Source: a plasmid
DNA length: 64,000 nucleotides
Strand: one strand, 5' to 3'
Sequence record: NZ_CP031103.1
This document shows, piece by piece, positions 1,518-52,208 of this stretch (the first letter of the stretch is position 1; each line of letters begins with the position of its first letter). The notes under the pieces are model-generated. The model saw nothing but the letters and a program-made list of their open reading frames with translations, was not told the origin of the DNA and ran no database searches. The position numbers and the translations under genes were made by a program.

Positions 1518-3022
1518 TCAGACATCTTCCGCAACCAGATCCTTCGCCCATCCCGCCACCGATTCACGCTCTTTGACCATATCGCGGGTAATAACCATTT
1601 CAGCCGGAACATAATCAACCATGAAGCTGAAGCAATAGGTATCCCAGCGATCGGGAGACGGCAGGCCCATTTCCTTACGCATTGTCTCTTTGGGCATCAT
1701 GCACCAGAGCCCCAGCTCGTTCAGCTTGCACGGCAAACGTGAGGCCTGGTCGAGGGTCTTCTCGTGGCGATCGAGGCGCAGGCGGCCGGTTCGCACGGCA
1801 TCGCGCGTCATGATGTTGGCGTAGGCGCGTTTATTGAGGAATCGTTTCTTGTCGTCCTGGGAGAAGCACGGCTGACCCCAGCGTATGCGCTGCACCCGCC
1901 GCCCGGCCTCCTCCAGAATCGTCGCTGTATCGGCCCCTACGCCGTCGCCGTCAAAGGCATAGGAAAGGTTAGGGTACTGGTCTGGCGTGTACTCAGCGGC
2001 CAGCAGACGGCCGAAGTTGACCGGATCGATAGTACCCGGCCATTCCCTCACGGACACCGGCACCACGCGGCGCTCGTAGCGATCGCCGCTGACGCGCACC
2101 AGGGTGGCCACGGAGCTGTCGCGGCCGTTGCCGACGTCGGCCAGCAGCAGCCAGCCCCAGCCCTTGGCCAGCTTCGGTGTGGATTTGGTGGCGCGTTCGC
2201 ACTCGTCGCGTGACAGCAGGTTAGCGGCGCTGGTGCGCGGGAACTCGCCCCGGACCTTAATCATGTATTCCGGCGCGTCACGGGACCCGCCGTATTCGCG
2301 GATCTTGGTACGGATAAACGCCGTGGTAACCAGCGGCGACTGCTCGGAGTTGAGCTTGATCGCCGTGTAGCCTTCCTTGTCGCCCGGGTGACGCTTGGCC
2401 AGCTTGTAGTGACAATCGTAGAAGTAGCCGCTTGGACGCGTTGGCTGGCTCAGCAGCAGGATGCGGTTGTCTTCCTCGGTCAGAGCGCCGGTCATTACCC
2501 CGAAGGCCTTATCCGAGACACCAGAGGCCTCATCGACGATGTAGAAGAGGTGTTTGGCGTGCTCACCGGCGAGGGATTCTTCGTTACCGATACGGCAACC
2601 CTTCGGGCTGACGAACCATACGCCCTTACTGGAGCGTTCGAAGAAGGTCGTTTCCGTCAGCACGAAATACTGCTCCACCCACGGGTGACGGCGGCAGAGC
2701 TCACGGTAGTTGATTTTGAGGTACTTCCAGACGACCTGCTGTACCTGGCCGATTTTGTTGGCTACCACCACCACACGGGCGCCGGGAAAGCACAGCATGT
2801 AGATAAGGATCATGATACTGGTCATGTCCGACTTACCGGTACCGTGGCCGGAAGAGACGGCCGTCTTGGCGCCGGTTTCCTGCGTGGAGTTGAGGATCAG
2901 CTCCTGCTGCCAGGTGGGGTGTTTACCGAACACTCCACCGCGGCCGTCGTCCAGTCATAACGGTACCGGCGCACCAGGTCACGGTAGCGCGGGTCGCGGG
3001 TAATGGAGCGTATCTTGGCCAT
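1518..3022 (-). CDS. pacB: terminase large subunit PacB-like; ATG at 3022 overlaps pacA stop (TAATG) but the reading frame is interrupted about 2900-2960, the long ORF resuming at 2933
   Basis: Terminase ATPase-like glycine-rich SSGHGTGKS motif and downstream acidic motifs; ATG at 3022 frame stops at 2903, the 471-aa ORF is in the -1 frame; total length about 500 codons, close to P1 PacB. Confidence 0.7.
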
Positions 3023-4465
3023 TACCAGGTTTCCTCTGGCTCAGCGTTCGGGTCGTCGTCTTCGTCGTCCGGAAGGGCGTCATCCGGTGTCCATGCGTCC
3101 ACGACATCCCCCACCAGCACGCCCTCGCCGTCTGCACCGTCGGTACCGGTGAAGTCGTCCTCCTGCAGGAGCTCGCCGGCCTGGTGTGCGGCCTCGTTGG
3201 CGATGATGCCGGTAATCTCTTCATTACGGGCCAGAAGCCACTCTTCGCGCACCCGCTGCTGCTCGCGGTAGGCGCGGGACTCTGCCTCGAGCTCCTCGTC
3301 AGTGACACCGCCTTCCTTATGGGCGGTAGGCTCTATCCAGCTCACCTCTTTGAGCATTTCCGCGTGCAGCGATGGCGGGTACTCGAGGTGCTCCAGGTCG
3401 AACAGGCGCGCCGTCTCCAGGGCTGACAGCTCATTGTCCACCCGGTGTTTCATGATGGCCCGGGTATGCTCGATACGTTCGGCCAGCGGCATCGGGTGCC
3501 GGTTCCACTCGGCCAGTGCCTGCTTGCGGGCATCGAGCGCTTGTTTCTGCCGGTCGAGCTCGAACTTCATCAGCCCCAGCTTGTGGCGGGCGATCGCCGA
3601 CTCCAGCTCGGTCATGCGCTGGCTGGTACCGAAGATAGCCTGCGCCTCAACCTGGTCGCGCGGCATCGGCTGGCCTTCCTCATCCACCCACGGCGAGCTG
3701 TCGTAGTCCTCGGCTATCTTCTTGAGGATCTGGTTCTGCTTGCGGTACATGGTCATGTACCGGCCCTGGGCTAAAACGAGGTCGCGGTTATCCAGCCCGG
3801 TGGCCAGCGCCAGCTCCACGATGTCGTCGTCCATTTCCAGCAGCGAACAGTAACCGCCGAAATCCATGTTATGGGTGCCGCCCACCTCGCCGTATAACGC
3901 GGGCAACGCGGCATCATTTGGGCGCGTCGGTGAATGATCCCGGAAATTCTGATCACGCGTGCTGGCCGGGTGATCAGCGTGTGTGTCGCCCCCCGCTTTT
4001 TTGCCCTTACCTCCCCCCGGACGCCTTGCCGGGTGCGGGCTCCCGCTTTCCCCGCCCCTTATTGTGATCAGCCTGATTGTGATCAGAATTTTGATCACCA
4101 CCGTTTTGATCACTGTTTTGATCACTGTTTTGATCACGTTTTCGGGCGGCCCGCTGGTCGGCGGACATCTGGCGGACTTCCGCGCGCAGCACCTTGCCGA
4201 CCTTCAGGACAGGGGCCGGTTCGTCGGGGGTTTTCGGGGGCTTCTTGCTCTTGCTGGCGGGTTTCTTACCGGCGGGCTGGTTGGCCTGCGCCACGTTGAT
4301 AGCGGGCTTCATTTCACGACGGACGGTATTCGGGTTAAGACCGTTAGCCTCGGCATATTGCGCGAGCGTCAGCGTGCTGGCGTACTGCTCCAGGTAGTTA
4401 GCTATGTGATACTGCCAGTCCGTCTTTGCCACGCCCGCGCCTCTGTTATGCCCGCTTAAAAACAT
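3022..4465 (-). CDS. pacA: terminase small subunit PacA-like containing the pac site; split into two overlapping ORFs (4465-4007 and 4137-3022), i.e. frameshift within or next to the repeat tract
   Basis: N-terminal HTH-like region, internal TGATCA repeat tract typical of P1 pac located inside pacA; 1444 nt span is not a multiple of 3. Confidence 0.6.
4061..4137. repeat. P1-type pac site: 2x ATTGTGATCAG plus 4x TTTTGATCAC (three as a perfect 12-bp tandem), six Dam GATC sites in 77 bp
   Basis: Seen in sequence; P1 pac consists of clustered TGATCA(G) hexamers whose Dam methylation controls cleavage. Confidence 0.7.
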
Positions 4466-4767: not shown

Positions 4768-5720
4768 ATGAACGTTAAAAAAATTAAAGCAGCGGCAGAA
4801 CATCCTAACCCGGAATAGCCATTTATTGCGCTGGTAGCACTAGACGACGGCAGCGGCAACATCGCCTGTTCGTTCCATGACGCTGAAGGTGCCCTGTATG
4901 AAACCCACCAGCCCTCACTGATCGAGCAAGATGCCTCCGCCGGGTTCGGTTCCTCTCACATGAGCAACAGCGTCTGGGAAACCGCTTTACCGTGCGTCGT
5001 AACCCTACCAAACCACTGACTACCCTAGATCCGGCCTACCAACTCCGTTCTGGCCGTTGATACGATGTCTAAAGCGAATCTGGCGGTGTAGCGTGCGTGG
5101 TTGGCTGCACCCTGCCGGTGGAACAGTTCTATAACCGCGGCGACGCCTCGCAGCCGGTTAACCTGACCCGTATTCAGGCCAAAAAAGACAACCTCATGGG
5201 CGGCTGCACCAACGCGTACGGCGCGTATGAGCCCCCGGTCATCATGTCCGTTACCGTCTACCCGGAAGCCCTGCCAGCCTATTACTACTGCGCCACCCGT
5301 GAGGAAGGTAACCAGTCCTACCCGGAAGAGCATAAGACGCTGGTCGTTGACCTGGGCGAGTTTACCGCCGATTACGCCATCATCAGCACCGGCGACGAGA
5401 TCGTGGACTTCAGCACCCATGAACACGGCATTCACCTGATGGTTAGCCACTTCCGCACCCTGCTGGCGCGTGAACGTCACATTGAAGACGTGCAGTCGAT
5501 GCCAGACTCGGACGTGAAGGCCGTGATCAGCCGTGGTTACATCGGTTCCTCACTGGAAACCCCGCAGGCTATTGCCGCCCGTATCGACGTTTCTGATCTG
5601 GTTACAGAGGCTGCTGAATACCTTAACAACATGCTACAGGCCGATACCGCTGGTAAGGGCCTGCTGGTTACGCAGTGCGTAGCGGGCGGGATGTTGCTTA
5701 AAGAGTGTGGCGTACTGGAT
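4768..5720 (+). pseudogene. actin-like segregation ATPase (ParM/StbA/Alp superfamily), 5' portion; in-frame TAG at 4816-4818, frame changes between about 5028 and 5097, and truncated at 5720 by transposon insertion
   Basis: Phosphate-1 motif IALVALDDGSGNI (about 4830-4870) and phosphate-2 motif LVVDLGEFTADYAII (about 5340) at ParM-like spacing; gene continues at 21136 after the 15.4-kb insertion. Confidence 0.5.
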
Positions 5721-5741
5721 GGGCTCCGCTTGGAATTCGGA

Positions 5742-7067
5742 ATCTATGGTCACTCCCGTTTTTGCAACACCGATTTTGACGACAAGTTGGCTTGCTTGAA
5801 TCTATCCGGCGTCTGAATGGGATTTTATTCCCGCGCCTTGATGAGTTCCGCGCCTGATGAACCTCCAGAAAATATACGGCTTCAATGAGCCTTTCCGTTT
5901 TACAGGTTCCTCAACAGGCCGGTGGGCCGTTAGTATCATCAATATCAGTATTCGCAAAACCAGATCAGTAATTCTTTAAACCGGTGTATTTCTGCCGTTA
6001 TGCTACATAAGTTTGCTGTCGTGCCGTTAGGGCCCAGGCTATTCTGGCCAGCTTGTTTGCCAGAGCACAAGTGACGACAAAGTTGCTTTTCCGGCACAGT
6101 AAATCCCTGACCCAATCGGCCAATTTGCCAGACTGGTGTTCCAGTTTTTGTATGAATACCCTGGCACATTGAACCAACAAAGTTCGGATCTTTTTATTAC
6201 CTCGCTTACTAATTCCCAGCAATGTCGTCCTACCTCCCGTGCTGTACTGCCGAGGTACAAGCCCTGTTGCCGCCGCAAAGTCACGGCTGCTGGCGTACTG
6301 CTTCCCGTCGCCAATCTCAGTTGAAATAGTACTCGCTGTCAGTGTTCCGACGCAGGGAATGCTCAGCAAGCGCTGTCCAACCTCATCTTCGTCCAACTTT
6401 CGTTTCAACTGGGATTCCAAATCTTTAATCTGCTCAACAAGATAGTGATAATGCTGTTGTAATTTCAGCAATAACTGGCTGAGGTAAAGAGGCAAACTAT
6501 TATCCTCAAGAATGGTACTCAGTCGGCTAATAACGGCAGCTCCTCGGGAACGCTAATGCCAAATTCCAGCAGAAAAGCATGCATTTGATTGGTTGTTTTT
6601 ACCTTATCCTGAACCAGGGATTCACGGACACGATGCAGAGCCCGCATTGCCTGCTGAGATTCCGTTCTGGGCTGCACAAAACGCATAGACGGACGCGATG
6701 CAGCTTCACAAATAGCTTCGGCGTCGACAAAGTCGTTTTTATTGCTTTTAACGAACGGGCGGACAAATTGTGGTGATATCAGCTTTGGGGAATGCCCCAA
6801 CTCTTCCAACTTGCGTGCCATAAAGTGAGAACCGCCACAGGCTTCCATTGCGATGGTTGTAGCGGGCATGTCGCCAAAAATTCGATCAACTTTGGCCGGG
6901 TAAATTTTTTACGGTAAACAGCCTTCCCGCGACGATCCTGGCAATGAATATGGAAAGAGTTTTTACCCAGATCGATACCAATGAGCGCAATGTTTTCCAT
7001 GATAGTTCTCCGAATGAAAGCCTGTCCTCAGCATAGTACCGGGAAGGAGGGAGTGACCATCTCATTA
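5742..7067 (-). mobile_element. IS5075/IS4321-like (IS110 family, IS1111 group) copy 1 inserted in the tnpA-side IR; transposase split into 3 ORFs by two 1-bp C-homopolymer deletions relative to copies 2 and 3
   Basis: Near-identical to 19782-21109 and 56776-58103; CCCC to CCC differences at about 6860 and 6545. Confidence 0.85.
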
Positions 7068-7078
7068 AATATCCTACG

Positions 7079-10063
7079 CTAAGCCTGTTTTTTGTACAGG
7101 CTGCTATCCACTGAGCGTAATGTGCGGTATTTACCCTGCCCCAGCTTGAGGTTTGTTCGCCAGACGTAATCCCCGCTCAGATTTATGTGCTCCCATCCCA
7201 GTGGGGACAAATGCGCAATAAGTTGTTCATTTAGTGGGAGTCCTTTTCGCTTCAGAGAATCTATGGCTCTTTCCATATATACCGTATTCCACAGTGAGAT
7301 CGCCGCAGTCAGCAATGTCAGACCGCTGGCCCGGTAGCTTTGATTTTCCAGTCCCCGATCTCTGATTTCCCCCAGTCGGTGCATAAAGACAGCTCGCGCC
7401 AGGGCATTGCGGGCCTCACCTTTATTCAACCCTGCCTGTACCCGGCGGCGCAGTGAAGGATCCCGGAACCAGTCCAGCATAAATAATGACCTTTCGATGC
7501 GGCCAATCTCCCTCAGTGCCTTTGCCAGACCATTCTGTTTCGGGTAGCTGGCCAGCTTTTTCATCATCAGTGATGCCGTTACCGTTCCCTGCTTTATAGA
7601 ACTTGCCAGACGCAGTACCTCATGCCAGTGGGTTTCAATTTCCTTCAGACTCAGTCTGGTTGAGGATATGATTGACTGAAGCCCCGGATACAACTCAGCT
7701 TTCCCATGAATAAACAAGCGCTTGTCATGAAGATCCCGGATCCTTGGCGCAAAAGCGAATCCAAGCAGATGCATTAGCGCGAATACATGCTCAGTGAAGC
7801 CTGCTGTGTCGGTGTAATGCTCTGTAATTTCGAGATCGGTTTCGTGGTACAGCAGGCCATCAAGCACGTGTGTTGAGTCCCGCACGCGGCTGATTACTTT
7901 GATGTAAAACGGGCTGTATTGGTCCGAAATATGCGTATAAATCTGCACCCCTGGCTCCTGGCCGTATTTCAGATTGACCTGACCCGCATAACGCCCATGA
8001 CTCCCTACCCGAAAGTTCTGTCCGTCAGATGATGACGTTGTTCCATCGCCCCAGAATGCCGACAGAGGTCGCTTTTTCTGAGCATTGACCAACTCGGCCA
8101 GCGCGGCTGAATAAGTTTCATCCCTGATGTACCAGGCCTGAATGCCCTCAAGTGACGATTTTGTTGTTCCCGGACAGGATTCGGCCATTTTTGTCAGCCC
8201 AAGGTTGATGCCATCGGTCAGGATGGTGGTCAGTAACAACTTTCTGTCTTTAGGTCTGACGTGATTATTTTTGAGGTGGGTGAAATGGCGGGTAAAACCC
8301 GTCCAGCTATCCACTTCATCCAGCATTTCAGTAATTTTAGGATGAGGCAGCATGCCATACACCAGATCACCAAAAGGGGTTGCTGCTGAAGGGACACTGT
8401 TATCCAGCGGGGTAATTTTGACGCCTTTATCCGATATATCAACATCGGGCAAATCACCGGCCAGCGCCATCGCATTCACTTCCTCCAGGTGCGAAGCCAG
8501 AAGCGTCATACGGCTCCCAATGTATTCATGGCAATCGGTTGGAATAGCGAGGGGTAACTGGTTATCCCGGAGTGATTTTTCAAAATCGCCAGGCGGGATC
8601 AAATAATCATCGAAATTCCTGTAGCGACGAGATCCTTTCACCCAGATGTCACCTGAACGTAAAGCTCCCTTCAGCTCATTCAGCACACAAAATTCGTAAT
8701 ATTTTCGGTCAATGCCGTTGGACGTGATCACCACCTTTCTCCAGCTTTCCGGGATAAACCCGGTTGGCGCAGAAGACGGTACTTTTCGGAGTTGCTTTCG
8801 ATACATCTCTCTGACGGTATCCAGCGCATAACTAAGCTGCATTGCGGCGGGGGCAGCACTGAACTGCAACGCGGACAGCATCCGGGGAGCGTATTTGCGC
8901 AGCGTGCTGTATTTGTCTGTGATCAGATGCAACGGGTCGAAGTTGTCCTTACGTGACAGGAACCGTGTCTCTTCAACGCTGTTGATGAATTCCTGCCAGG
9001 GAAGGACGTCTTCTATTGCGGCCCAGGGATCTTCGCCAGATTCTCTGGCGTTAAGTAATGCCTGTCCGACGGTAACGTATTGCTTCAGCTTACTCTGAAT
9101 CAGTTTTCCCGTTTGCTGGAGTCGTTCGGCCTGCGTGCGTTTTGCCCTGCTGAACAGACTGCCCAAAATACGCTCATGCAGATCAATAACTTCGTCAGTC
9201 AGCGTGGCCCTGGCTTCCGATACGATACAAACCAGAGAGGCATAGCGGCGAACATCCGTGAATTTTGCCAAATCCCGGCTACTCATTTTCCTGCCTTCGC
9301 GTGCGAGTTTCAGGAGGCGGTTCTGGTGAACGGAAAGCGCAATACCGTCAGGCAATGCCAGTGACTCTATAGCATTTAACCGGTCGATATGTTGCAGGAC
9401 ATTTTTGCCATTAATTTTTCCCGGAGACTGAAGTAGCCAGGCCAGCCGTGAAGGTTGTTCGCCCTCAGAGATCAGCAGGCGATCCAGCGCAGCTTTTTGC
9501 CCCGGTTCAAGCTGTGCGGTCAGCGCAGAAAAAACCGCCCTGTCGGCAAGCGTAGTTGCTTCGGCAAGGGTTCGTTCGATGACCTCAACAGAGGGAAAAA
9601 TCACCTTATTATTGTGGAGCCATGAGAGCATTTCCTCTGCAAGTAGAAAACCTCTGTCTGTCCGCATGGCGTGGGGGTAAAGGTGGCGTATGCAGCTTTT
9701 TTGCAGTGCCCGATTGAACGGGCATAATTCCAGGTAGCGATAAAGTTCTGCCAGGTGTTCCCAACGGGTGACCTCTCTTGATGCATACTCGGTCCACAAA
9801 TCAGACTGAAGTTTCAAATGCATCGCCAGTCTGGAGACAACGCCATCGTGAGGTGAAATACTTTTGTCAGGGGGAAATCCCGGTCCCCGCAAGTAGCAGA
9901 GTAAAACAGCAAAGCCGAGGCGATTCGCTGGCCTGCGGTGTTTATTAATAAGCGCGAGGTCATGTTCACTCAAAAAACACATGCGGGTCAGAAGAACATC
10001 ATCATCCGGCACAACCAACAAGCGTTCTTTTTCTTCACTGCTGAGTATTTGTCTCCGTGGCAT
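7079..10063 (-). CDS. tnpA: Tn3-family transposase TnpA (about 994 aa; start at MPRRQILSS)
   Basis: Homology to second tnpA at 53792-56764 and Tn3-family conserved C-terminal region; stop codon lies within terminal IR. Confidence 0.9.
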   Translation of the reverse strand: MPRRQILSSEEKERLLVVPDDDVLLTRMCFLSEHDLALINKHRRPANRLGFAVLLCYLRGPGFPPDKSISPHDGVVSRLAMHLKLQSDLWTEYASREVTRWEHLAELYRYLELCPFNRALQKSCIRHLYPHAMRTDRGFLLAEEMLSWLHNNKVIFPSVEVIERTLAEATTLADRAVFSALTAQLEPGQKAALDRLLISEGEQPSRLAWLLQSPGKINGKNVLQHIDRLNAIESLALPDGIALSVHQNRLLKLAREGRKMSSRDLAKFTDVRRYASLVCIVSEARATLTDEVIDLHERILGSLFSRAKRTQAERLQQTGKLIQSKLKQYVTVGQALLNARESGEDPWAAIEDVLPWQEFINSVEETRFLSRKDNFDPLHLITDKYSTLRKYAPRMLSALQFSAAPAAMQLSYALDTVREMYRKQLRKVPSSAPTGFIPESWRKVVITSNGIDRKYYEFCVLNELKGALRSGDIWVKGSRRYRNFDDYLIPPGDFEKSLRDNQLPLAIPTDCHEYIGSRMTLLASHLEEVNAMALAGDLPDVDISDKGVKITPLDNSVPSAATPFGDLVYGMLPHPKITEMLDEVDSWTGFTRHFTHLKNNHVRPKDRKLLLTTILTDGINLGLTKMAESCPGTTKSSLEGIQAWYIRDETYSAALAELVNAQKKRPLSAFWGDGTTSSSDGQNFRVGSHGRYAGQVNLKYGQEPGVQIYTHISDQYSPFYIKVISRVRDSTHVLDGLLYHETDLEITEHYTDTAGFTEHVFALMHLLGFAFAPRIRDLHDKRLFIHGKAELYPGLQSIISSTRLSLKEIETHWHEVLRLASSIKQGTVTASLMMKKLASYPKQNGLAKALREIGRIERSLFMLDWFRDPSLRRRVQAGLNKGEARNALARAVFMHRLGEIRDRGLENQSYRASGLTLLTAAISLWNTVYMERAIDSLKRKGLPLNEQLIAHLSPLGWEHINLSGDYVWRTNLKLGQGKYRTLRSVDSSLYKKQA

Positions 10064-10221
10064 AAATGCTTCCTCTGCACATAGTTCATTAAAGTTATCA
10101 TTTGCACTGACCGAAACCGGTCGGTTTCGTACGCCTCGCAAACAATATGTCCGAAAGTCAGCGAAATTTGTTTCGTACATACGTTATAATTCGGACATCC
10201 ATTTCGTACGGAAAGTTTCCT
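10064..10221. promoter_or_regulatory. res site / divergent tnpA-tnpR promoter region with repeated TTTCGTAC(G) motifs
   Basis: Intergenic between divergent tnpA and serine resolvase; repeated tttcgtac motifs and palindromes seen. Confidence 0.5.
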
Positions 10222-10800
10222 ATGTCACGAGTTTTTGCTTACTGCCGGGTTTCGACTCTTGAGCAAACCACCGAGAATCAGCGAAGGGAAATTGAAGCGG
10301 CGGGTTTTGCCATCAGACCCCAGCGGCTGATTGAGGAACATATAAGTGGTTCGGTTGCTGCCAGCGAACGACCAGGGTTCATCCGGTTGCTTGATCGTAT
10401 GGAAAGCGGTGACGTATTGATTGTCACCAAACTTGACCGACTCGGCCGTAATGCGATGGATATCCGAAAAACAGTTGAACAACTGGCTACTTTAGATATC
10501 CGTGTTCATTGTCTCGCTCTCGGAGGTGTGGATTTAACCAGCCCGGCCGGAAAAATGACTATGCAGGTGATTTCAGCTGTGGCTGAGTTTGAGAGGGATC
10601 TGCTGATTGAACGCACACATTCAGGGATTTCTCGGGCAAGATCAGCCGGGAAACGCTTCGGTCGTCCGCCCATCCTGAGCGAGGAGCAAAAAAAAATAGT
10701 GTCAGAGCGCCTTAATTCCGGGGCCAGTATCAGTGCGGTTGCCAGAGAATTTAATACCACCCGGCAAACCATACTCCGGGTAAAAGCAGGACAGCAATAA
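10222..10800 (+). CDS. tnpR: serine recombinase / resolvase TnpR
   Basis: YCRVST catalytic serine motif near N-terminus, C-terminal HTH. Confidence 0.9.
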
Positions 10801-10900
10801 TACTGAATGTGAATAAATCCCATAACTGGCCAGGCCGTTGAAACTGTTCTTGAAGTAAACATCCGGAAAGCATGAAACATCATTCTGTCCACAAGGAACA

Positions 10901-10950
10901 GTGGCTATTATAATCGAATTTCGATAACGAAATTCGATTATAATAGCCAC
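10901..10950. repeat. near-perfect 50-bp palindrome (23-bp arms gtggctattataatcgaatttcg, 4-bp spacer) 26 bp upstream of chrA
   Basis: Seen in sequence. Confidence 0.8.
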
Positions 10951-10975
10951 TAAAACCAGCAATCAGGATCTGACC

Positions 10976-12181
10976 ATGAACGATACTGCCAGGAATGATC
11001 ACAGCCCCTGGGCTGTCTTTCTGATTTTCTTCCGACTTGGCCTGACATCCTTCGGCGGCCCAATTGCCCATCTGGGTTACTTCCGCGATGAGTTTGTGAC
11101 GCGACGGCAGTGGTTGACCGAGCGCAGCTATGCAGATTTGGTCGCTCTGTGCCAGTTCCTTCCGGGACCAGCAAGCAGTCAGGTTGGTATAGCGCTCGGG
11201 CTGTCCAGGGCCGGTTATACCGGGGCGCTGGCAGCATGGGCCGGCTTCACGCTACCGTCAGCAGTTGCACTGATCCTGTTTGCACTGGGGATGACCGGTT
11301 ACGGGGATGTGATGCCCTCTGGTGTATTGCATGGGCTGAAGGTGGTAGCCGTTGCGGTGGTCGCGCAAGCTGTATGGGGCATGGCCCGAAATCTTTGCCC
11401 GGATATACCGCGTATTACTGTCATGGCAGTGGCAACCTGCTTTGTGCTTCTTGTGCCATCGGCCTGGGGACAGGTGGGAGTGATCATCACTGCGGCTGTC
11501 ACTGGCATGTTACTGTTCAAACCTCAGCAGGCGACGGTACATGATCCACTGCCCGTTTCAATACGGCGTCGCGTCGGATTGTTCTGGCTCACGCTGTTCT
11601 TTGTGCTACTGACAGGGTTACCATTGCTGACGGCGATATTCCCAAATCCGACGCTGTTAATGGTAGAAACTTTCTACCGGACCGGATCACTGGTTTTTGG
11701 TGGCGGGCATGTCGTGCTGCCATTGCTGCAAACTGAAGTCGTTCCTTCTGGTTGGGTCAGCAATGATACATTCCTGGCTGGCTACGGCGCTGCCCAGGCC
11801 GTTCCTGGACCGTTGTTCACTTTTGCAGCCTTTCTCGGGGCTTCGATGAACCAGGTGCCTTCTGGCTGGCTGGGTGGTCTGGTTTGTCTGCTGGCAATTT
11901 TCGCACCGTCCTTCCTTCTGATTGTGGGAGCATTGCCGTTCTGGGAAAGTCTGCGCCGCAATATCCGCACACAAGCAGCGTTGCAGGGTATTAATGCAGC
12001 CGTAGTTGGCCTTCTGCTGGCTGCTCTCTATCAACCAGTATGGACGAGCGCAGTTCTCGCTCCGCAAGATTTCGGCCTTGCCCTTGTGGCACTGGTCGCT
12101 CTGATGTTCTGGAAACTGCCGCCGTGGCTGGTCGTAATGAGTTGCGGTGTTGCGGGTTGGTTGTTGAGTTTAGCACTGTGA
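10976..12181 (+). CDS. chrA: chromate efflux transporter ChrA
   Basis: CHR family two-domain membrane protein, typical N-terminus FFRLGLTSFGGP. Confidence 0.9.
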   Translation: MNDTARNDHSPWAVFLIFFRLGLTSFGGPIAHLGYFRDEFVTRRQWLTERSYADLVALCQFLPGPASSQVGIALGLSRAGYTGALAAWAGFTLPSAVALILFALGMTGYGDVMPSGVLHGLKVVAVAVVAQAVWGMARNLCPDIPRITVMAVATCFVLLVPSAWGQVGVIITAAVTGMLLFKPQQATVHDPLPVSIRRRVGLFWLTLFFVLLTGLPLLTAIFPNPTLLMVETFYRTGSLVFGGGHVVLPLLQTEVVPSGWVSNDTFLAGYGAAQAVPGPLFTFAAFLGASMNQVPSGWLGGLVCLLAIFAPSFLLIVGALPFWESLRRNIRTQAALQGINAAVVGLLLAALYQPVWTSAVLAPQDFGLALVALVALMFWKLPPWLVVMSCGVAGWLLSLAL

Positions 12182-12191
12182 GGTTCCGGGC

Positions 12192-12497
12192 GTGACCGAC
12201 AAAGATCTTTACGGCGGGATGATCCGTTTGCACATCCTGCATCATGCAGCCAAAGAACCCGTCTTTGGTCTGGGCATCATTGAGGAATTGCGACACCACG
12301 GTTATCAACTCAGCCCGGGTACCCTGTATCCGATGCTGCACGGTATGGAAAAGAAGGGGTATCTCACTTCACGACATGTTCAGGCCGGTCGACGAAGCAG
12401 GCGAGTATATGAAATCACCGGACAAGGGAACATAGCGCTAACGGACGCCAGAAACAGGGTGAAAGAGCTGTTCGGTGAACTTGTTGAAGGCAAATGA
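12192..12497 (+). CDS. PadR-family transcriptional regulator
   Basis: PadR winged-helix signature (GYxLSPGTLYPxLxxME). Confidence 0.8.
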   Translation: MTDKDLYGGMIRLHILHHAAKEPVFGLGIIEELRHHGYQLSPGTLYPMLHGMEKKGYLTSRHVQAGRRSRRVYEITGQGNIALTDARNRVKELFGELVEGK

Positions 12498-12620
12498 TAT
12501 GCCTATGGTTTTAGTCTGCCGTCTTCTGAAAACGACAGACACATGTAAGATTATCCGCTGCCTGGCAGAAGGAGACTTTGTGAAAACGCTCATGGTGTGT
12601 ATTTATACGATCAGAAGGCG

Positions 12621-13319
12621 TTATATTTTTTCCTGATTGACGCGGGACGAAAGTTCCTGATGACTCTCTTTTCGTTCGCTGTAGCGATCTGCAAGGTAGC
12701 TGGTTTGTCCCCTGAGCAGCAACGTAATTTTAAACAACTCCTCTGCGACATCTACGATACGGTCGTACCATGAGGACGGCTTCATCCTTCCGTTCTCATC
12801 AAATTCCTGCCAGGCTTTCGCCACCGAGGACTGGTTGGGAATTGTGAACATCCGCATCCAGCGGCCCAGAATGCGCATCTGGTTCACGGCATTGAAAGAC
12901 TGTGAACCGCCGCAAACCTGCATCACTGCAAGAGTCTTGCCCTGCGAAGGACGAACCGCGCCTTCACTCAACGGTATCCAGTCGATCTGCGCCTTCATCA
13001 CCGCGCTCATAGCCCCGTGCCGTTCCGGCGAGCTCCACACCATCCCGTCACACCATCTGACCAGCCCGCGTAGCTCGGAGACTTTAGGGTGCGTATCCGG
13101 GGCATCATCCGGCAGGGGTAAACCGGAGGGGTTAAAGAATTTCACCTCCGCGCCCATCGCCGTCAGCAGGCGACCTGCTTCCTCCGCGGCAAAGCGACTG
13201 TAGGAGCGCTCCCTTACTGAGCCATACAGGATCAGAATCCGTGGGGGCTCCTGCAGGTGCAGACGTTCAGCGATATGTTGATCAAAACAGTCAGTATTCA
13301 GGGCTGGAAATTGTTCCAT
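12621..13319 (-). CDS. arsH: ArsH NADPH-dependent FMN reductase
   Basis: Sequence family recognition; divergent from arsR as usual. Confidence 0.85.
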
Positions 13320-13404
13320 TTTTCTCCTCCGGAGAGAACAGATGATTTCAAATTTAACACATATGATTTAACATATGTGTATTCTAAAGTGAACGGAGTG
13401 AAAA

Positions 13405-13725
13405 ATGCTACAACCTGTTCAGCTTTTCAAAATCCTGTCGGATGAAACACGACTAGCCATCGTCATGCTTCTCCGGGAGTCCGGAGAATTGTGCGTCTGC
13501 GATATCTGCGTTGCTACCTCCGAATCGCAGCCCAAAATCTCCCGACATATGGCTATCCTTCGCGAGGCTGATCTGGTTCTTGACCGTCGGGAAGGCAAAT
13601 GGATCCACTATCGTCTGTCACCCCATATTCCGGCGTGGGCAGCAGAGACAATCACGACGACCTGGCAGTGTCTGCGCGAGGATGTACGTGAATGGCTGGA
13701 CAAATCAGCCTGCACCTCCTGCTGA
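13405..13725 (+). CDS. arsR: ArsR arsenite-responsive repressor
   Basis: ELCVCDL metal-binding motif, HTH. Confidence 0.85.
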
Positions 13726-13769
13726 GGCAGGAAAACATATTTACAAAATCATATATGATGGGGTATGAG

Positions 13770-15059
13770 ATGCTTTTGGCAGGGAGTATATTTTTACTGA
13801 CGCTGGTACTGGTGATCTGGCAACCCAGAGGCCTGAGTATTGGCTGGAGCGCGAGTATCGGGGCAGTGCTGGCGCTGGGAACCGGTGTCATCCATACCGC
13901 TGATATTCCCGTTGTCTGGAATATCGTCTGGAACGCGACAGCGGCATTTATTGCGGTCATCATCATCAGCCTGCTGCTCGATGAGTCCGGCTTCTTTGAA
14001 TGGGCCGCACTGCACGTCTCCCGCTGGGGTAACGGACGTGGCCGCCTGCTGTTCACCTGGATAGTCTTGCTCGGTGCCGCTGTTGCTGCTTTGTTCGCCA
14101 ATGATGGCGCCGCGCTGATCCTGACGCCGATTGTGATTGCGATGCTGCTCGCACTGGGGTTCAGCCAGGGCACGACACTGGCCTTTGTCATGGCTGCAGG
14201 ATTTATTGCAGATACGGCCAGCCTGCCACTCATTGTTTCTAACCTGGTGAATATCGTCTCGGCGGACTTCTTCGATCTGGGCTTTACACAGTACGCCTCC
14301 GTTATGATCCCCGTGGATGCGGCAGCGATTGCGGCCACGCTGATCATGCTGCATCTCTTCTTCCGCAGGGATATTCCGGCAACATATGACGTTTCGCTAC
14401 TGAAGACGCCTGCCAGTGTGATAAAGGATCCGGCAACGTTCAGGGCGGGCTGGATTGTCCTGTTATTGCTGCTTGTCGGTTTCTTCGTTCTGGAGCCGCT
14501 GGGGATCCCTGTCAGCGCGATAGCAGCTGCTGGCGCAGCAGTACTGTTTATCGTGGCGAAAAGAGGTCATGGCATCAACACAGGGAAAGTCCTGCGCAGT
14601 GCGCCATGGCAGATCGTGATTTTTTCGCTGGGCATGTACCTGGTGGTCTATGGCCTGCGCAATGCCGGGCTCACGGAGTATCTGTCTGGTGTACTGAACC
14701 TGCTGGCAGAAAAGGGGTTATGGGCAGCAACGTTCGGCACCGGTTTCCTGACCGCATTCCTGTCGTCGGTGATGAACAATATGCCGACGGTGCTGATTGG
14801 TGCGCTGTCGATTGACGGGAGTACGGCGACTGGCGTCGTCAAAGAGGCAATGATTTATGCCAACGTGATTGGCTGCGATTTAGGCCCGAAAATCACCCCG
14901 ATTGGCAGTCTGGCAACCCTGCTTTGGCTGCATGTGCTTGCCCAGAAAAATATAACGATCACCTGGGGTTATTACTTCCGCACCGGCATTATCATGACTC
15001 TGCCCGTGCTGTTTGTCACTCTGGCCGCGCTGGCGTTGCGGCTTTCCATCACTTTGTAA
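13770..15059 (+). CDS. arsB: ArsB arsenite efflux pump (429 aa; start [10 protein letters not shown])
   Basis: Family recognition. Confidence 0.9.
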
Positions 15060-15071
15060 TGAGATAAAGAT

Positions 15072-15500
15072 ATGAGCAACATTACTATCTATCACAACCC
15101 GGCCTGCGGTACTTCACGCAACACGCTGGAGATGATCCGTAACAGCGGTAACGAACCGACCATTATTTATTATCTCGATACGCCACCGACCCGTGATGAG
15201 CTGATTAAACTTATTTCAGATATGGGAATTACGGTGCGTGCATTGCTGCGTAAGAATGTTGAGCCTTATGAACACCTGGGCCTTGATGAAGAGAAATTCA
15301 GTGATGAGCAGTTGATTGATTTTATGCTTCAACATCCGATCCTGATTAATCGGCCGGTAGTCGTTACGCCGCTGGGAACGCGCCTGTGTCGCCCGTCGGA
15401 AATTGTGCTGGAAATTCTTGCGGATAAGCAAAAAGGGGCTTTCACTAAAGAAGATGGCGAGAAAGTAGTGGATAGTCGCGGTAAACGAATCATTAAGTAA
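15072..15500 (+). CDS. arsC: ArsC arsenate reductase (glutaredoxin-dependent)
   Basis: N-terminal HNPACGTSR motif. Confidence 0.9.
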   Translation: MSNITIYHNPACGTSRNTLEMIRNSGNEPTIIYYLDTPPTRDELIKLISDMGITVRALLRKNVEPYEHLGLDEEKFSDEQLIDFMLQHPILINRPVVVTPLGTRLCRPSEIVLEILADKQKGAFTKEDGEKVVDSRGKRIIK

Positions 15501-15542
15501 AACTGTCAGACACCCCTGCCCGAAGGCAGGGGGAACTTATCG

Positions 15543-15686
15543 TTAATGGCAATGACCACCCTCATGTGAGCCATGAACATAATCGTGAATATACCCATTA
15601 TGGGTATATTCACCATGATATGCCCACGCGGCCATGGTTGTGCCTCCCAGCAGAACCACGAGCATAACTGCAATGACTTTCTTCAT
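15543..15686 (-). CDS. 47-aa secreted His-rich peptide (MKKVIAVMLVVLLGGTTMAAWAYHGEYTHNGYIHDYVHGSHEGGHCH), not in ORF track
   Basis: Strong RBS aaggagatata 7 nt upstream of ATG; signal peptide then 8 His + 1 Cys in 25 residues; immediately downstream of P1B-ATPase. Confidence 0.4.
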   Translation of the reverse strand: MKKVIAVMLVVLLGGTTMAAWAYHGEYTHNGYIHDYVHGSHEGGHCH

Positions 15687-15723
15687 TATATCTCCTTGAA
15701 AATGAATAATTTTACTGCTTACC

Positions 15724-18366
15724 TTACCGTCTGAAACGTAAAAGTCTCAGACTGTTAAGAATGACCAGCACAGCGGCTCCCGTATCGCTCAGCACCGCCA
15801 TCCAGAGCGTTAACCAGCCCGGGAAGATCAGCGTCAGCGCGACGACCTTGACCAGTAACGAGAACACAATGTTCTGGCGGATGATCCGGGCCGTCAGTTT
15901 GCTCAGGGCAAAGGCGTGAGGCAGCTGTTCCAGACGGTCTGACATCAGCACCACATCGGCGGTTTCGATGGCTGAATCCGTGCCCGCTCCGCCCATCGCA
16001 ATACCGATATCGGCGGCAGCCAGCGCCGGCGCATCGTTGATGCCATCGCCCACCATGGCGATACGGATCCCTTTCTGTTGAAACGCCTCAATGGCCGCCA
16101 CCTTATCTTCCGGCAGCAAGTCGGCCCGCCAGGACTCTACGCCCGCCTGAGCGGCAATGGTACGGGCGGTACCGGCATTATCACCCGTCAGCATCAGGGT
16201 ATGTGTCAGGCCATCCGCGTGAAGCTCCTTCAGGGCATCAACGGTCGTTTTACGCAGCGCATCCGCAATGGCGAACAGACCATAAACGCCCATATTCGTT
16301 CCGAGCAGTACCACCGTCGCACCGCTCTCCTTGAGCAAATCAATCTGGCCCTGGATCTCTGGAGCAATCGCAATCTCGCGGAACAGCTTTTCATTACCTG
16401 CTAACCATGTTTCGCCCCCGACGACGGCGCGGGCACCCTGGCCCGGCAGGGTCTGGTACTCGCTGGCCTCTGCTGCCTGCGCATTATGCTGACGCGCATA
16501 ATCACTGATCGCCGTGGCCAGCGGGTGCGTTGAGTGGGACTCAACCGCCAGGGCGATAGCTAACAGGTTCTCGCTGCTTGCCCCGGAAAACGTCTGCCAC
16601 TGCGTGACCCGGGGTTTGCCCTCCGTCAGGGTACCGGTTTTATCGAAAGCCAGGCCCTGAATGGCACCCAGCTTTTCAAGGGTTACGCCCCCCTTAACCA
16701 GGATGCCGTGACGGGCTGCGTTACCAATTGCCGAGACGATGGCCACCGGCGTAGAAATCACCAGTGCACAAGGACAGGCCACAACCAGCAGTTCCAGCGC
16801 GCGGTAAAACCACTCCGCAAAACTTCCCCAGCCCACCACTGGCGGCACGATGCTGACCACCAGTGCCAGAATGAACACTATCGGGGTGTAAATCGCAGAG
16901 AATTTTTCCACGAAACTCTGGGTAGGCGATTTACGGTTCTGCGCCTCTTCTACCATATGGATGATGCGTGACAGGGCAGTCTCTGTAGAGGCTCTCGTCA
17001 CCTCAACTTCCAGCACGCCGTTATGGTTAATACTTCCGGCATACACGTCATCCCCTGGTGCCTTATCAACCGGAATAGACTCGCCGGTGATCGGTGCCTG
17101 GTTAACGCCGGATTCCCCCTTAATCACCCTACCGTCAAGAGGTAAACGATCGGCGGGTTTGATCAGCATGGTGGTGCCTTTGCGCACGTCGCCAACGGGG
17201 ACACTCACCCACTGATTATCCTTGCGGATTGTGGCTGTTTCAGGTGCCAGCGCCATCAGGCTTCTGATGGAGTTGCGGGTTTTTTCAATACTTCTGGCCT
17301 GCAGCGTGGCCCCCAGAGAGAAGAGGAACACGACGCTGGCCCCTTCAAGCCACTCGCCGATAATGGCCGCGCCAATGGCGGCTGCGGACATGAGCACGTT
17401 CATGTCCAGCGATTTGCTGAGTATGGCGTACCAGGCGCTGCGGGCAGGCCTGATGCCCCCGGCAACGATGGAAAGCGCATAGCAGAGCGTGGACAGATAG
17501 TCAGGGAAGGAGAGCCAGGAAAGAACAAACCCGGTCACCAGCGCCACGCCCGATACCACCACGTTCAGCGTTCCGGTACCGCTGCGTTTTTTGCTACTGA
17601 TGCCCGCGCCAGTGGGTTGTGCCTTGTAGCCGGCTTTAGCCACTTCACTCTGAATGACATCCTGCGACAGGGTATGACTAATCGCCATCTTGCCGGTGGA
17701 GAAGTTGACGGATACCTGACTGACGCCCGGCAGTTTACCGAGGTGTTTCTCGATGGTTGCCGCGCATGCGCCACAGTCCATCCCTTCGATAAAGTACTCT
17801 TCTGTGCCTGAAGCGGTCATGGCATCAAGTGTAAAACCGAGTTTCATCACCGCCTTTTCGATTTCCGGCTGGCTGGCGGCTTCACTGGCATGAACCTGCA
17901 TTTTCCCGGCGCTGAAATTGACGTTGCACTCCGCTACCCCGTTAAGCTGCCGTACACGTCGCACGATAGTTTCCGCACATGAAGGGCAGTCCATACCGCC
18001 AACGAGATAGTCGAGCGTCCGGGTACCTGCGATATCCGCTCGCGCGTTCAGCGGGGCGGTTTCAACGGGATCGGCCCCGCAGCAGGGATCCTGACACGCC
18101 GACGGCGTTAGGGGCTTCATTACGGTTGCGGAGGTAAGTGTAAAGGGTTTAACGGCGGCTTCTCCTTTGAAGGTCAGTTCGGCTTTATCTGCTTTCTGAA
18201 GGGCCGGTGTACAGCAGCTCTCATGACAGGTTTCTGCCTGGACCGGTAAGGGTTCTTTTTCAGCAACTGGTTTATTGGGCGTTACCGGAGAAAAGCCCTT
18301 GAAGGTGCGCGTGTTGTCTGGCCGGGAGCAGGAACCCGTTGCGCAGCATGATGATTTTTCGCTCAT
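15724..18366 (-). CDS. P1B-type heavy-metal (Zn/Cd/Pb-type) translocating ATPase with Cys-rich N-terminus and two CxxC metal-binding domains
   Basis: GMDCPSCA and GMDCGACA HMA motifs, CPC transmembrane motif, DKTGTLT phosphorylation motif. Confidence 0.85.
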   Translation of the reverse strand: MSEKSSCCATGSCSRPDNTRTFKGFSPVTPNKPVAEKEPLPVQAETCHESCCTPALQKADKAELTFKGEAAVKPFTLTSATVMKPLTPSACQDPCCGADPVETAPLNARADIAGTRTLDYLVGGMDCPSCAETIVRRVRQLNGVAECNVNFSAGKMQVHASEAASQPEIEKAVMKLGFTLDAMTASGTEEYFIEGMDCGACAATIEKHLGKLPGVSQVSVNFSTGKMAISHTLSQDVIQSEVAKAGYKAQPTGAGISSKKRSGTGTLNVVVSGVALVTGFVLSWLSFPDYLSTLCYALSIVAGGIRPARSAWYAILSKSLDMNVLMSAAAIGAAIIGEWLEGASVVFLFSLGATLQARSIEKTRNSIRSLMALAPETATIRKDNQWVSVPVGDVRKGTTMLIKPADRLPLDGRVIKGESGVNQAPITGESIPVDKAPGDDVYAGSINHNGVLEVEVTRASTETALSRIIHMVEEAQNRKSPTQSFVEKFSAIYTPIVFILALVVSIVPPVVGWGSFAEWFYRALELLVVACPCALVISTPVAIVSAIGNAARHGILVKGGVTLEKLGAIQGLAFDKTGTLTEGKPRVTQWQTFSGASSENLLAIALAVESHSTHPLATAISDYARQHNAQAAEASEYQTLPGQGARAVVGGETWLAGNEKLFREIAIAPEIQGQIDLLKESGATVVLLGTNMGVYGLFAIADALRKTTVDALKELHADGLTHTLMLTGDNAGTARTIAAQAGVESWRADLLPEDKVAAIEAFQQKGIRIAMVGDGINDAPALAAADIGIAMGGAGTDSAIETADVVLMSDRLEQLPHAFALSKLTARIIRQNIVFSLLVKVVALTLIFPGWLTLWMAVLSDTGAAVLVILNSLRLLRFRR

Positions 18367-18716
18367 TGGGCAGGATCTCCAAGCAGGCGACTGTTCATAC
18401 CGCAGCAGTGAACCTCTTCGCCCACTTCAACCATCAGGGTATCAAGCATGACCAGAAAGGCTTCCATATGCGGGCCTGACAGGCCGTAGTAGCAAAACTT
18501 CCCTTCCTGTCGTTTGGTTATCATCCCGCATCCCTTAAGGCAGGCGAGATGCTGGGAAACACCGGACTGAGATGCACCGATCTCATTCACGATATCGGAT
18601 ACCGTTTTCTCTCCGCTACGCAGCGAAATGAGGATACTCAGACGGGTCTTTTCCGATACACCGCGCAGGAATTTGATTTTGTCGTCAAGGGTTGCAGCCA
18701 CTACACACTCCAACAT
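18363..18716 (-). CDS. ArsR/SmtB-family metalloregulator (CadC/ZntR-like)
   Basis: HTH plus Cys-containing metal sites; translationally coupled upstream of ATPase. Confidence 0.8.
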   Translation of the reverse strand: MLECVVAATLDDKIKFLRGVSEKTRLSILISLRSGEKTVSDIVNEIGASQSGVSQHLACLKGCGMITKRQEGKFCYYGLSGPHMEAFLVMLDTLMVEVGEEVHCCGMNSRLLGDPAQ

Positions 18717-18914
18717 ATTAATATTCGCTAATGCGCAATATATTAATCCACGCTAATATAATGTCAATTGGCCCGTGCGATTTTGATATAGATAAAAGGT
18801 ATATCAATGGGTTGCATAAAAAACGCTCCCGTTAATGTCGCGGGTCATTGTCTGCACAGAGCGCATCAGGGTCATCTGAAGGCTCATTGTTAAACGGTCA
18901 ATAAGGATTATTTT

Positions 18915-19550
18915 ATGAAGAAAGGAGTTATCGTGGGTATCTTTCTGCTTGTGCTGGGTGTGGCGGCGTTCAGTCTCTGGTTCACCACGAAACCAGCAGA
19001 AGGTAACCGGGACAGTTTTGTGGCCAGCCATTCCCCGGTGCTGGGGGTCATTAATGCACCGGTAACCATTGTCGAATTTTTTGATCCGGCCTGTGAGGCA
19101 TGTGCGGCTATGTCACCCTATGTTAAAGAGACCCTGGCCACTCATCCGGAGGGCGTCAGACTGGTTCTGCGTTATGCCCCTTTCCACGGTGACGTTTCCG
19201 TCGAGGCTATCGAAATTCTTGAAGCGGCCCGTGAACAACGGCTTTTTGAACGTGTACTGACCGCGTTTTTCCGCAATCATCCATCCTGGGCGGGTCACGG
19301 TTTTTCACCCGAGAAAGGTAAGGCTACCCTCTGGAAAATTGCTCTGGCGTCAGGACTTAATGAGCAGCGGGCCAGAGCTTACATCGCCGGAAATAAAACG
19401 AAGAAAGTGATTGCGGAGGATCTGAAACAGATCAAGGAGCTTAATATCCAGGGCACGCCAACATTCTATGTGAATGGTAAAAAACTGATCGACCTGGGCC
19501 CCGAGCAGCTGGATCAGATGGTGTCAGCGGCGCTGAAAGAGAGCAAATAA
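18915..19550 (+). CDS. DsbA-like thiol:disulfide oxidoreductase (signal-anchored, CEAC active site)
   Basis: Thioredoxin fold CxxC motif FDPACEAC. Confidence 0.75.
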   Translation: MKKGVIVGIFLLVLGVAAFSLWFTTKPAEGNRDSFVASHSPVLGVINAPVTIVEFFDPACEACAAMSPYVKETLATHPEGVRLVLRYAPFHGDVSVEAIEILEAAREQRLFERVLTAFFRNHPSWAGHGFSPEKGKATLWKIALASGLNEQRARAYIAGNKTKKVIAEDLKQIKELNIQGTPTFYVNGKKLIDLGPEQLDQMVSAALKESK

Positions 19551-19574
19551 TCTCGTTTATTGCCCGAGGTATCC

Positions 19575-19612
19575 GAACAACAAGTCGCCTGAAAGGCGAC
19601 TTGTTGTGTTTA
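19575..19612 (+). terminator. rho-independent terminator (aacaacaagtcgcc tgaaa ggcgacttgttgtg + T-rich)
   Basis: Hairpin seen in sequence. Confidence 0.7.
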
Positions 19613-19781
19613 ACATTGAAAAGTATGTTGGCCACATGAAATGATGGTTAGTCGCGTTGACAGGAATTAACGTAGCCTGCCCATACCTTAAACCTGTGTT
19701 TTCGCCTTAGGCTTAATGTCCGCAGTTCACTCATAGTTGCCCATCATGCCAGCTCAAAAAACAGGCTTAACGTAGGATATT

Positions 19782-21109
19782 TAATGAGATGGTCACTCCC
19801 TCCTTCCCGGTACTATGCTGAGGACAGGCTTTCATTCGGAGAACTATCATGGAAAACATTGCGCTCATTGGTATCGATCTGGGTAAAAACTCTTTCCATA
19901 TTCATTGCCAGGATCGTCGCGGGAAGGCTGTTTACCGTAAAAAATTTACCCGGCCAAAGTTGATCGAATTTTTGGCGACATGCCCCGCTACAACCATCGC
20001 AATGGAAGCCTGTGGCGGTTCTCACTTTATGGCACGCAAGTTGGAAGAGTTGGGGCATTCCCCAAAGCTGATATCACCACAATTTGTCCGCCCGTTCGTT
20101 AAAAGCAATAAAAACGACTTTGTCGACGCCGAAGCTATTTGTGAAGCTGCATCGCGTCCGTCTATGCGTTTTGTGCAGCCCAGAACGGAATCTCAGCAGG
20201 CAATGCGGGCTCTGCATCGTGTCCGTGAATCCCTGGTTCAGGATAAGGTAAAAACAACCAATCAAATGCATGCTTTTCTGCTGGAATTTGGCATTAGCGT
20301 TCCCCGAGGAGCTGCCGTTATTAGCCGACTGAGTACCATTCTTGAGGATAATAGTTTGCCTCTTTACCTCAGCCAGTTATTGCTGAAATTACAACAGCAT
20401 TATCACTATCTTGTTGAGCAGATTAAAGATTTGGAATCCCAGTTGAAACGAAAGTTGGACGAAGATGAGGTTGGACAGCGCTTGCTGAGCATTCCCTGCG
20501 TCGGAACACTGACAGCGAGTACTATTTCAACTGAGATTGGCGACGGGAAGCAGTACGCCAGCAGCCGTGACTTTGCGGCGGCAACAGGGCTTGTACCTCG
20601 GCAGTACAGCACGGGAGGTAGGACGACATTGCTGGGAATTAGTAAGCGAGGTAATAAAAAGATCCGAACTTTGTTGGTTCAATGTGCCAGGGTATTCATA
20701 CAAAAACTGGAACACCAGTCTGGCAAATTGGCCGATTGGGTCAGGGATTTACTGTGCCGGAAAAGCAACTTTGTCGTCACTTGTGCTCTGGCAAACAAGC
20801 TGGCCAGAATAGCCTGGGCCCTAACGGCACGACAGCAAACTTATGTAGCATAACGGCAGAAATACACCGGTTTAAAGAATTACTGATCTGGTTTTGCGAA
20901 TACTGATATTGATGATACTAACGGCCCACCGGCCTGTTGAGGAACCTGTAAAACGGAAAGGCTCATTGAAGCCGTATATTTTCTGGAGGTTCATCAGGCG
21001 CGGAACTCATCAAGGCGCGGGAATAAAATCCCATTCAGACGCCGGATAGATTCAAGCAAGCCAACTTGTCGTCAAAATCGGTGTTGCAAAAACGGGAGTG
21101 ACCATAGAT
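19782..21109 (+). mobile_element. IS5075/IS4321-like copy 2 (intact 334-aa transposase 19849-20853) inserted in right IR of metal transposon
   Basis: Identical insertion point relative to IR as copies 1 and 3. Confidence 0.9.
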
Positions 21110-21135
21110 TCCGTTTTCCAAGCGGACCCCTGGAT

Positions 21136-34450: not shown

Positions 34451-34481
34451 ATGGCTGCTTTTACTCACTGGATGTGGATAA

Positions 34482-50058: not shown

Positions 50059-52208
<2,150 letters not shown>

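Follow-up and report, generated by a model that had tools for sequence, protein, structure and literature searches.

A probable P1-type pac site inside a pacA homologue

We analyzed a stretch of 64,000 nucleotides of the plasmid sequence NZ_CP031103.1 (the window; coordinates are positions in it unless given with the handle of another contig, and the features of the site lie on the minus strand unless stated otherwise). It contains at 3933–4137 a 205-bp region that we consider, with a probability of roughly 80%, to be a P1-type pac site derived from a P1-related phage-plasmid ancestor of the kind found in Leclercia-type enterobacteria and Aeromonas. The assignment draws on the architecture of the sequence, the homology of the surrounding gene, gene order, constraint acting on the DNA and the decay of neighboring genes. 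In the window the site is a relic: the virion genes have been lost by deletion, and of pacA, pacB and parM only pseudogenes are left. The pac site of P1 comprises 161 bp within pacA and contains seven TGATCA/G hexamers (HEX4 and HEX3) and a site for integration host factor (IHF); it is cleaved centrally, under the control of Dam methylation (PMC10028697). In the same study the P1 hexamers were recoded synonymously and titer and self-packaging were measured. This kind of site is already known, and the copy in the window is a further example of it.

The site consists of two hexamer arms separated by a spacer. The upstream arm in gene orientation (4061–4137) carries six TGATCA hexamers at 4065–4136, which follow each other at start-to-start distances of 12, 12, 15, 12 and 15 bp and are translated as (R/S/G/A)-D-Q/H codons. 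Read directly, it is composed of two copies of ATTGTGATCAG (4061–4071 and 4076–4086) and four copies of TTTTGATCAC (4089–4098, 4104–4113, 4116–4125 and 4128–4137), the last three of which are arranged as a nearly perfect 12-bp tandem. Tandem Repeats Finder reported a 12-bp array of 3.8 copies at 4099–4142 and a 15-bp array of 2 copies at 4057–4086. The downstream arm (3933–3976) contains TGATCA at 3971–3976 and 3950–3955 and, in gene orientation, GGATCA at 3935–3940, spaced 21 and 15 bp start to start. Among the enterobacterial copies compared, the GATC of this last element is present only in the lineage of the window. The spacer (3977–4064) measures 88 bp; G makes up 44% and T 3% of its coding strand. 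The gap between the arms amounts to 94 bp from hexamer start to hexamer start. In total the layout is six hexamers, the 88-bp spacer and three hexamers, eight of them perfect TGATCA and one GGATCA. The site occupies codons ~100–168 of a reconstructed pacA-like gene of ~470 codons, the upstream tract corresponding to codons ~100–125.

A sequence-only reading of the window had picked out six elements at 4061–4137 in the N-terminal coding part of a small-terminase gene, with a layout unlike the 4+3 of P1. All six elements are as it described, but it had overlooked the second arm at 3933–3976. The placement in the gene, which belongs to the PacA family and is frameshifted in the window, and the departure from the P1 layout both hold.

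The clustering of these elements is far from random. Eight of the 22 TGATCA hexamers of the window fall within 187 bp, where 0.064 would be expected (Poisson P ~7e-15). The nine GATC sites at 3931–4140 (210 bp) constitute the densest GATC cluster of the window, and a random maximum of at least nine was obtained in 0.05% of simulations.

Comparison with the pac site of P1

In P1, as well as in P7 and SJ46, pac lies in the pacA reading frame, within its N-terminal third, as it does in the window. The same hexamer TGATCA with its Dam GATC core is used in both, two arms are present with a start-to-start gap of 96 bp in P1 and 94 bp in the window, spacings of 12 and 15 bp recur within the arms, and the reading frame of most hexamers agrees (xxT-GAT-CAx). 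The order of the genes downstream of pacA (pacB, c1, cre) is also shared. In the annotated P1 record the upstream arm consists of four hexamers spaced 7, 12 and 15 bp and the downstream arm of three, and the intervening spacer is AT-rich with an IHF site and central cuts. The two sites differ in that P1 has 4+3 hexamers in ~162 bp and the window 6+3 in 205 bp. Furthermore, P1 PacA has 397 aa, compared to ~470 aa for the remote homologue in the window, and the terminase genes of the window are pseudogenes, so that the site is unusable in cis.

Nine GATC sites in 205 bp could also represent an element for Dam/SeqA sensing that serves pacAB expression or plasmid maintenance and is not a cleavage site, and the presence of another GATC cluster at the replication origin indicates that the element makes use of such clusters elsewhere. 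However, position, two-arm geometry and the link to PacA and PacB match the experimentally defined P1 pac, and the cluster lies inside a gene, ~300 bp from its start. We regard a pure sensing function as extremely unlikely.

Constraint on the DNA of the site

We analyzed codon usage and variability in relation to the hexamers. Inside the site aspartate is encoded by GAT and GAC at a ratio of 10:1, compared to 6:25 elsewhere in this gene of 62% GC content (p = 5e-5). Eight of the nine aspartate codons of the site that precede glutamine or histidine are themselves preceded by a codon ending in T, which results in the eight TGATCA hexamers; the ninth is preceded by G, which results in GGATCA. When the four enterobacterial copies are aligned, none of the 48 columns within the eight TGATCA hexamers of both arms is variable, in contrast to 31 of the 173 columns between hexamers (p = 2.6e-4). 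In the rest of the pacA gene 204 of 1196 columns vary. The constraint acts on the DNA of the site rather than on the protein.

These data bear on the simplest alternative, namely a coding tandem repeat that arose by slippage and forms a DQN/DH low-complexity linker with no role at the DNA level. The tract does encode a low-complexity and probably disordered segment, and three of its units are 12-bp copies in tandem. Such a repeat is nevertheless at odds with the synonymous bias towards GAT and the T-ending codon in front of aspartate at all eight TGATCA hexamers, with hexamers that are invariant where the bases between them vary, with a GATC core that is kept in relatives where the peptide becomes SDP or other motifs, and with a second arm at a P1-like distance. 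There is accordingly hardly any room for an explanation by coding alone.

The pacA homologue and its relatives

The pacA-like gene is located directly upstream of the pacB homologue. The closest complete relative is the 63-kb plasmid pM17-63 of Leclercia adecarboxylata (NZ_CP102376), which is typed as non-mobilizable and shares 91–95% identity across the common backbone. In the plasmid collection it was the sole close DNA relative (91% identity). It resembles the window in its 6+2 layout, in its resistance transposons and in having no annotated virion genes, and differs in that pacA (470 aa) and pacB (501 aa) are intact, the spacer contains G5 instead of G6 and the third downstream GATC is missing.

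P1 PacA is assigned to the family phrog_1711 (E 4e-202). The intact relative matches the same family in two stretches (E 1.1e-13), and the two halves in the window do so as well (N-terminal 2.2e-8, C-terminal 2.5e-7). The 5’ open reading frame (ORF) also matches phrog_370, a small terminase, at E 1.5e-5. Comparison of the family profile with the C-terminal domain of P1 PacA gave an hhalign probability of 92.5%. BLASTP of the intact pM17-63 protein against P1 PacA aligned the N-terminal helix-turn-helix at 31% identity (E 5e-5; TLAQYAQANGLNPNTVRR versus TIAQYAAEFNLNPNTARR). By these matches the host gene is a distant homologue of pacA, and the proposal that the tract corresponds to the P1 hexamer array, at the equivalent place of a PacA-family gene, is borne out. 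The sole match in Pfam, a borderline one to DegT aminotransferase, was rejected as spurious; it accounts for the misleading name of the protein annotated by NCBI (P0004), which covers only the last 281 aa of the pacA-like 3’ part.

The PacB homologue provides the link to known phages. Intact PacB of pM17-63 is 55% identical to P1 PacB, and its closest phage neighbors are all members of Punavirus (54–57%), the next best reaching ~25%. In the phage collection neither the pacA region at the DNA level nor the PacA-like protein had a match, so that PacB is the sole link to Punavirus. The failure of the protein search reflects the high divergence of this PacA lineage. A scan of the GTDB genomes with the PacA profile returned one locus only, on the chromosome of Aeromonas media, and the PacA family is therefore rare among species representatives.

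Conservation of the arrays among PacA homologues

The sequence-only reading had named the lack of the repeat tract in homologous pacA genes as a finding that would speak against a pac site; we found the tract present in homologues. Bipartite GATC arrays with a central gap of 73–98 bp occur in nine of the eleven PacA homologues compared (P1 not counted), down to ~31% identity. Leclercia-type copies carry 6+2 hexamers. The P1-related phage-plasmids of Aeromonas, i.e. the 88-kb plasmid of A. salmonicida AS3 (NZ_CP110646) and pASP-135 (NZ_CP016381), share with the window the PacA family at 50–55% identity, the gene order parM / pacA-pacB / c1 / cre-like and a two-arm array at the same gene position, but in their arrays five TGATCA are spaced 18 bp apart and the second arm contains GATCAG elements. 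AS3 further differs from the window in having retained portal, baseplate and tail genes. pASP-135 carries 13 resistance genes and has been listed among putative phage-plasmids (PMC9600943). In this plasmid (L007, 4437–6382) an IS26-type insertion leaves 409 aa of pacB, and the pac arrays are intact; judging from the truncation, it is probably packaging-defective.

More distant copies depart further from the P1 motif. A 41%-identical contig from IMG/VR has 5+3 hexamers, and the chromosomal copy of A. media shows mixed GATC contexts. The 31%-identical homologue on a plasmid of A. hydrophila YURI 17 (NZ_CP121796; L017, 2501–3721) contains no TGATCA at all; its arrays consist of (T/C)GATCC units that encode SDP repeats and leave a central gap of 98 bp. 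Retention of the GATC core with switched flanks suggests a changed specificity of the pacase with Dam control kept. Judged from the sequences compared, the GATC core is the invariant part of the array, while the bases next to it, the number of copies and their spacing change from one PacA lineage to another. The P1 design of two arrays of Dam-site hexamers within the pacA frame thus reaches well beyond Punavirus, into a highly divergent PacA lineage, and it provides a simple signature by which packaging origins can be predicted from the sequence of P1-related phage-plasmids in Aeromonas and enterobacteria.

PacA homologues with 38–39% identity were also found in chromosomal islands lacking any PacB: on two Logan contigs (L012, 6455–7735 and L013, 905–2185) and on the A. 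media DSM 4881 chromosome (L021, 3992–5257). Neighboring genes encode an integrase, AlpA, a primase (DUF927/Toprim) and a type I restriction-modification system with an AAA ATPase in L012, and an AAA_25 helicase-like protein and DUF6387 in L021. Each of these copies retains a GATC array at the same position in the gene. The islands look like satellites whose small-terminase gene would redirect the packaging of a P1-type helper.

Proposed function of the ancestral site

Taking P1 as a model, the two hexamer arrays in the low-complexity linker of pacA, flanking the G-rich 88-bp spacer, would be the binding sites of PacA, whose N-terminal helix-turn-helix domain would make the contact, and whether cutting takes place would depend on how the GATC cores are methylated by Dam. 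Applying the geometry of P1, PacA and PacB would cut near the center of the spacer, at ~4015–4025 in the window (positions ~411–421 of the gene), from where headful packaging would start. P1 packages from pac towards lox. Packaging would correspondingly run to lower coordinates of the window, in the direction of pacB, c1 and the cre homologue.

Several points weigh against the assignment as a P1-type pac site. The similarity to P1 PacA detected by BLASTP is weak and restricted to the N-terminal 74 aa. Two of the eleven homologues do not show the bipartite array: a distant homologue from Vibrio is devoid of an array, and one homologue from a PacA-only island has one arm only. Whereas the P1 spacer is AT-rich with an IHF site, the spacer in the window is G-rich, and a scan with the IHF consensus WATCAANNNNTTR, limited to that consensus, gave no match with up to 2 mismatches at 3977–4064, while the P1 control site was found with one mismatch. 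Bending of the spacer may be achieved differently. Binding, cleavage and dependence on Dam in this PacA family are extrapolated from P1, and the presumed packaging direction follows from that of P1 and from gene order.

Decay of pacA, pacB and parM

The pacA-like gene is split into two ORFs. The 5’ ORF (4007–4465, minus strand, 152 aa) codes for the N-terminal helix-turn-helix domain, includes the upstream hexamer arm and terminates at a premature TAA after the frameshift; its homologues begin at a GTG at 4435. The 3’ ORF in the shifted frame extends over 3022–4137 on the same strand (371 aa), of which 3022–4012 represents the pacA-like 3’ part. In the alignment with pM17-63 the disruption is seen as a 1-nt insertion in a C6 run at 4013–4018 (G6 in gene orientation) relative to the G5 of intact relatives, which causes a +1 frameshift 43 bp downstream of the upstream-arm tract. 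A sequencing error was rejected as the cause: the frameshift is real, because the region is base-for-base the same in the independent assemblies L003–L005 (a JGI metagenome, an ENA assembly and an NCBI genome), and a fourth assembly (L006) also has the frameshift, with one mismatch elsewhere. Programmed +1 frameshifting on the G6 run by tRNA re-pairing is conceivable; we judged it unlikely because pacB and parM are broken as well, at positions that are not slippery.

The insertion at 4013–4018 is located 2–8 bp from the geometric center of the spacer, which is the cleavage position in the P1 pac. Slippage at the homopolymer is the ordinary explanation for it; more speculatively, it could represent the scar of a pac cleavage that was mis-repaired.

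The pacB homologue, coding for the large terminase (1518–3022, minus strand), has lost one nucleotide at ~2933, near codon 30, relative to pM17-63 (GTGGAG-TGTTCGG). The resulting -1 frameshift leaves a 41-aa ORF (3022–2897) and a 471-aa ORF (2933–1518) that is missing the conserved first 30 residues. Its product shares 85% amino acid identity with the copy on an A. salmonicida plasmid. The same disruption of pacA and pacB is present in independent assemblies. Homologues of PacA and PacB are encoded side by side, frameshifted in the window and intact in pM17-63, L010, L022 and L027; the intact pacAB of L027 has 95% nucleotide identity, and further intact copies are located on IMG/VR contigs of 86–93 kb. 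The parM gene (4768–5645) is likewise frameshifted, residues 1–115 and 75–302 of the L010 ParM mapping to different frames. It is also truncated at ~5645 by a Tn3-family transposon of ~15.4 kb (5718–21136) with ars/chr genes for arsenic and chromate resistance, and the backbone resumes at 21130.

Loss of the virion genes

The ORFs of a complete A. salmonicida phage-plasmid, which has portal, baseplate, tail-fiber assembly, SLT transglycosylase and Ref genes, were matched against the window. Only early and maintenance genes are kept, in addition to fused fragments of three structural genes. These form one 397-aa ORF at 43847–45040 (minus strand), in which the SLT-transglycosylase protein is represented by 333 aa (44% identity), the gene after it by 30 aa and a 1212-aa protein by 62 aa (77% identity); the matching fragments span 43776–45019. 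This ORF appears to be what a large deletion has left of the virion gene block. No homologues of portal, capsid, sheath and baseplate genes were found in the window, which also contains no long structural operon. Nor were structural genes found in the DNA fetched beyond both edges, ~28 kb of a possible 92.6-kb contig being only partly seen: the left flank carries the cre-like gene followed by ars, insertion sequence (IS) and defense genes, the right flank pco/sil.

An active pac of a functional P1-like phage-plasmid that packages itself from ~4100 is consistent with the intact state of all hexamers and with the presence of a C1-type repressor, a P1-oriR-like replicon and pacAB homologues. It conflicts with the frameshifts in pacA (+1) and pacB (-1) that recur in independent assemblies, with the reduction of the structural genes to fused remnants and with the contents of the flanks, and we consider it very unlikely. 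Relatives of 86–93 kb that are intact and possess portal, baseplate and tail genes do exist.

A P1-related phage-plasmid ancestry is secure, and this copy is a decayed plasmid derivative with resistance transposons. Of the P1-like phage-plasmid backbone proposed in the sequence-only reading the ancestry stands, in a degenerate form. Its view of the tract as direct evidence for a headful-packaging phage-plasmid does not agree with the state of pacA, pacB, parM and the morphogenesis genes, and the tract does not by itself give the start and direction of packaging, both of which are extrapolated from P1 and would require a pacase in trans. As a fossil in a heavy-metal-resistance plasmid the module illustrates the decay from phage-plasmid to plasmid. 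Its signature also helps to recognize defective derivatives at risk of being scored as phage-plasmids.

Possible packaging in trans

The relic site can be used only if a related helper supplies pacase and capsids in trans. P1 phagemids are transduced at high frequency via pac, and the site might have been kept since the pacase of a co-resident or infecting relative recognizes it, leading to high-frequency transduction of the plasmid. Several observations point in this direction. The eight TGATCA hexamers are unchanged despite three neighboring pseudogenes, and other defective derivatives have also kept their arrays (pASP-135 and, with pacB cut by a Tn3 element, L004). pM17-63, the closest of the sequenced relatives, has been typed as non-mobilizable, the hexamer layout is shared by relatives that are intact (L022, L027), and the PacA-only islands suggest that other elements exploit this pacase family. 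On the other hand, retained hexamers may simply mean that decay was recent. We rate retention by selection for transduction as a rather unlikely, minor possibility.

By extension, this non-conjugative metal-resistance plasmid would be a natural phagemid packaged in trans by intact relatives, and the PacA-only islands would be satellites that depend on the same pacase family; we regard this broader scenario as speculative and improbable to a similar degree. If the retained pac is indeed recognized in trans, it would provide a transduction route for a plasmid without evident conjugation machinery.

Neighboring genes, replicon and cargo

Convergent with pacB, as in P1, a gene at 671–1474 on the plus strand encodes a C1-type repressor homologue. 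The protein belongs to phrog_1678, the family of P1 C1 (BLASTP against P1 C1, E 3e-8), and an identical protein carries the domain PF27008 (Phage_P7_repressor_C1). In relatives the C1 gene is followed by a Cre homologue (31% identity, E 9e-37), which would lie just outside the left edge of the window. With the Cre homologue taken from these relatives, the gene order pacA-pacB-c1-cre equals that of P1.

The replicon at 34151–35433 resembles oriR of P1. A DnaA box (TTATCCACA) is located at 34230–34238, followed by six to seven GATC sites in an AT-rich segment (34255–34345), the second densest GATC cluster of the window. Five iterons of ~21 bp (GCGGTTACTTTCATAA) extend over 34344–34455 in front of a Rep3/RepB gene (34482–35354), and three more iterons are found at 35354–35433, similar to incA of P1.

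Cargo genes comprise a 1629-aa Type ISP restriction-modification enzyme (38479–43368, minus strand), merA (50523–52208, plus strand), a Tn3-family transposase (53792–56764, plus strand) and a CusS/PcoS-type sensor kinase (61387–63470, minus strand). The kinase gene adjoins a pco/sil copper cluster that runs past the right edge of the window. To the left of the window, related contigs (L026/L028, 874–3443) encode an OLD-like TOPRIM/AAA_15 ATPase and a UvrD-like helicase, arranged similarly to the Gabija defense system. In some copies of the plasmid lineage this pair adjoins a PIN/MazE pair and is located downstream of the cre-like gene.

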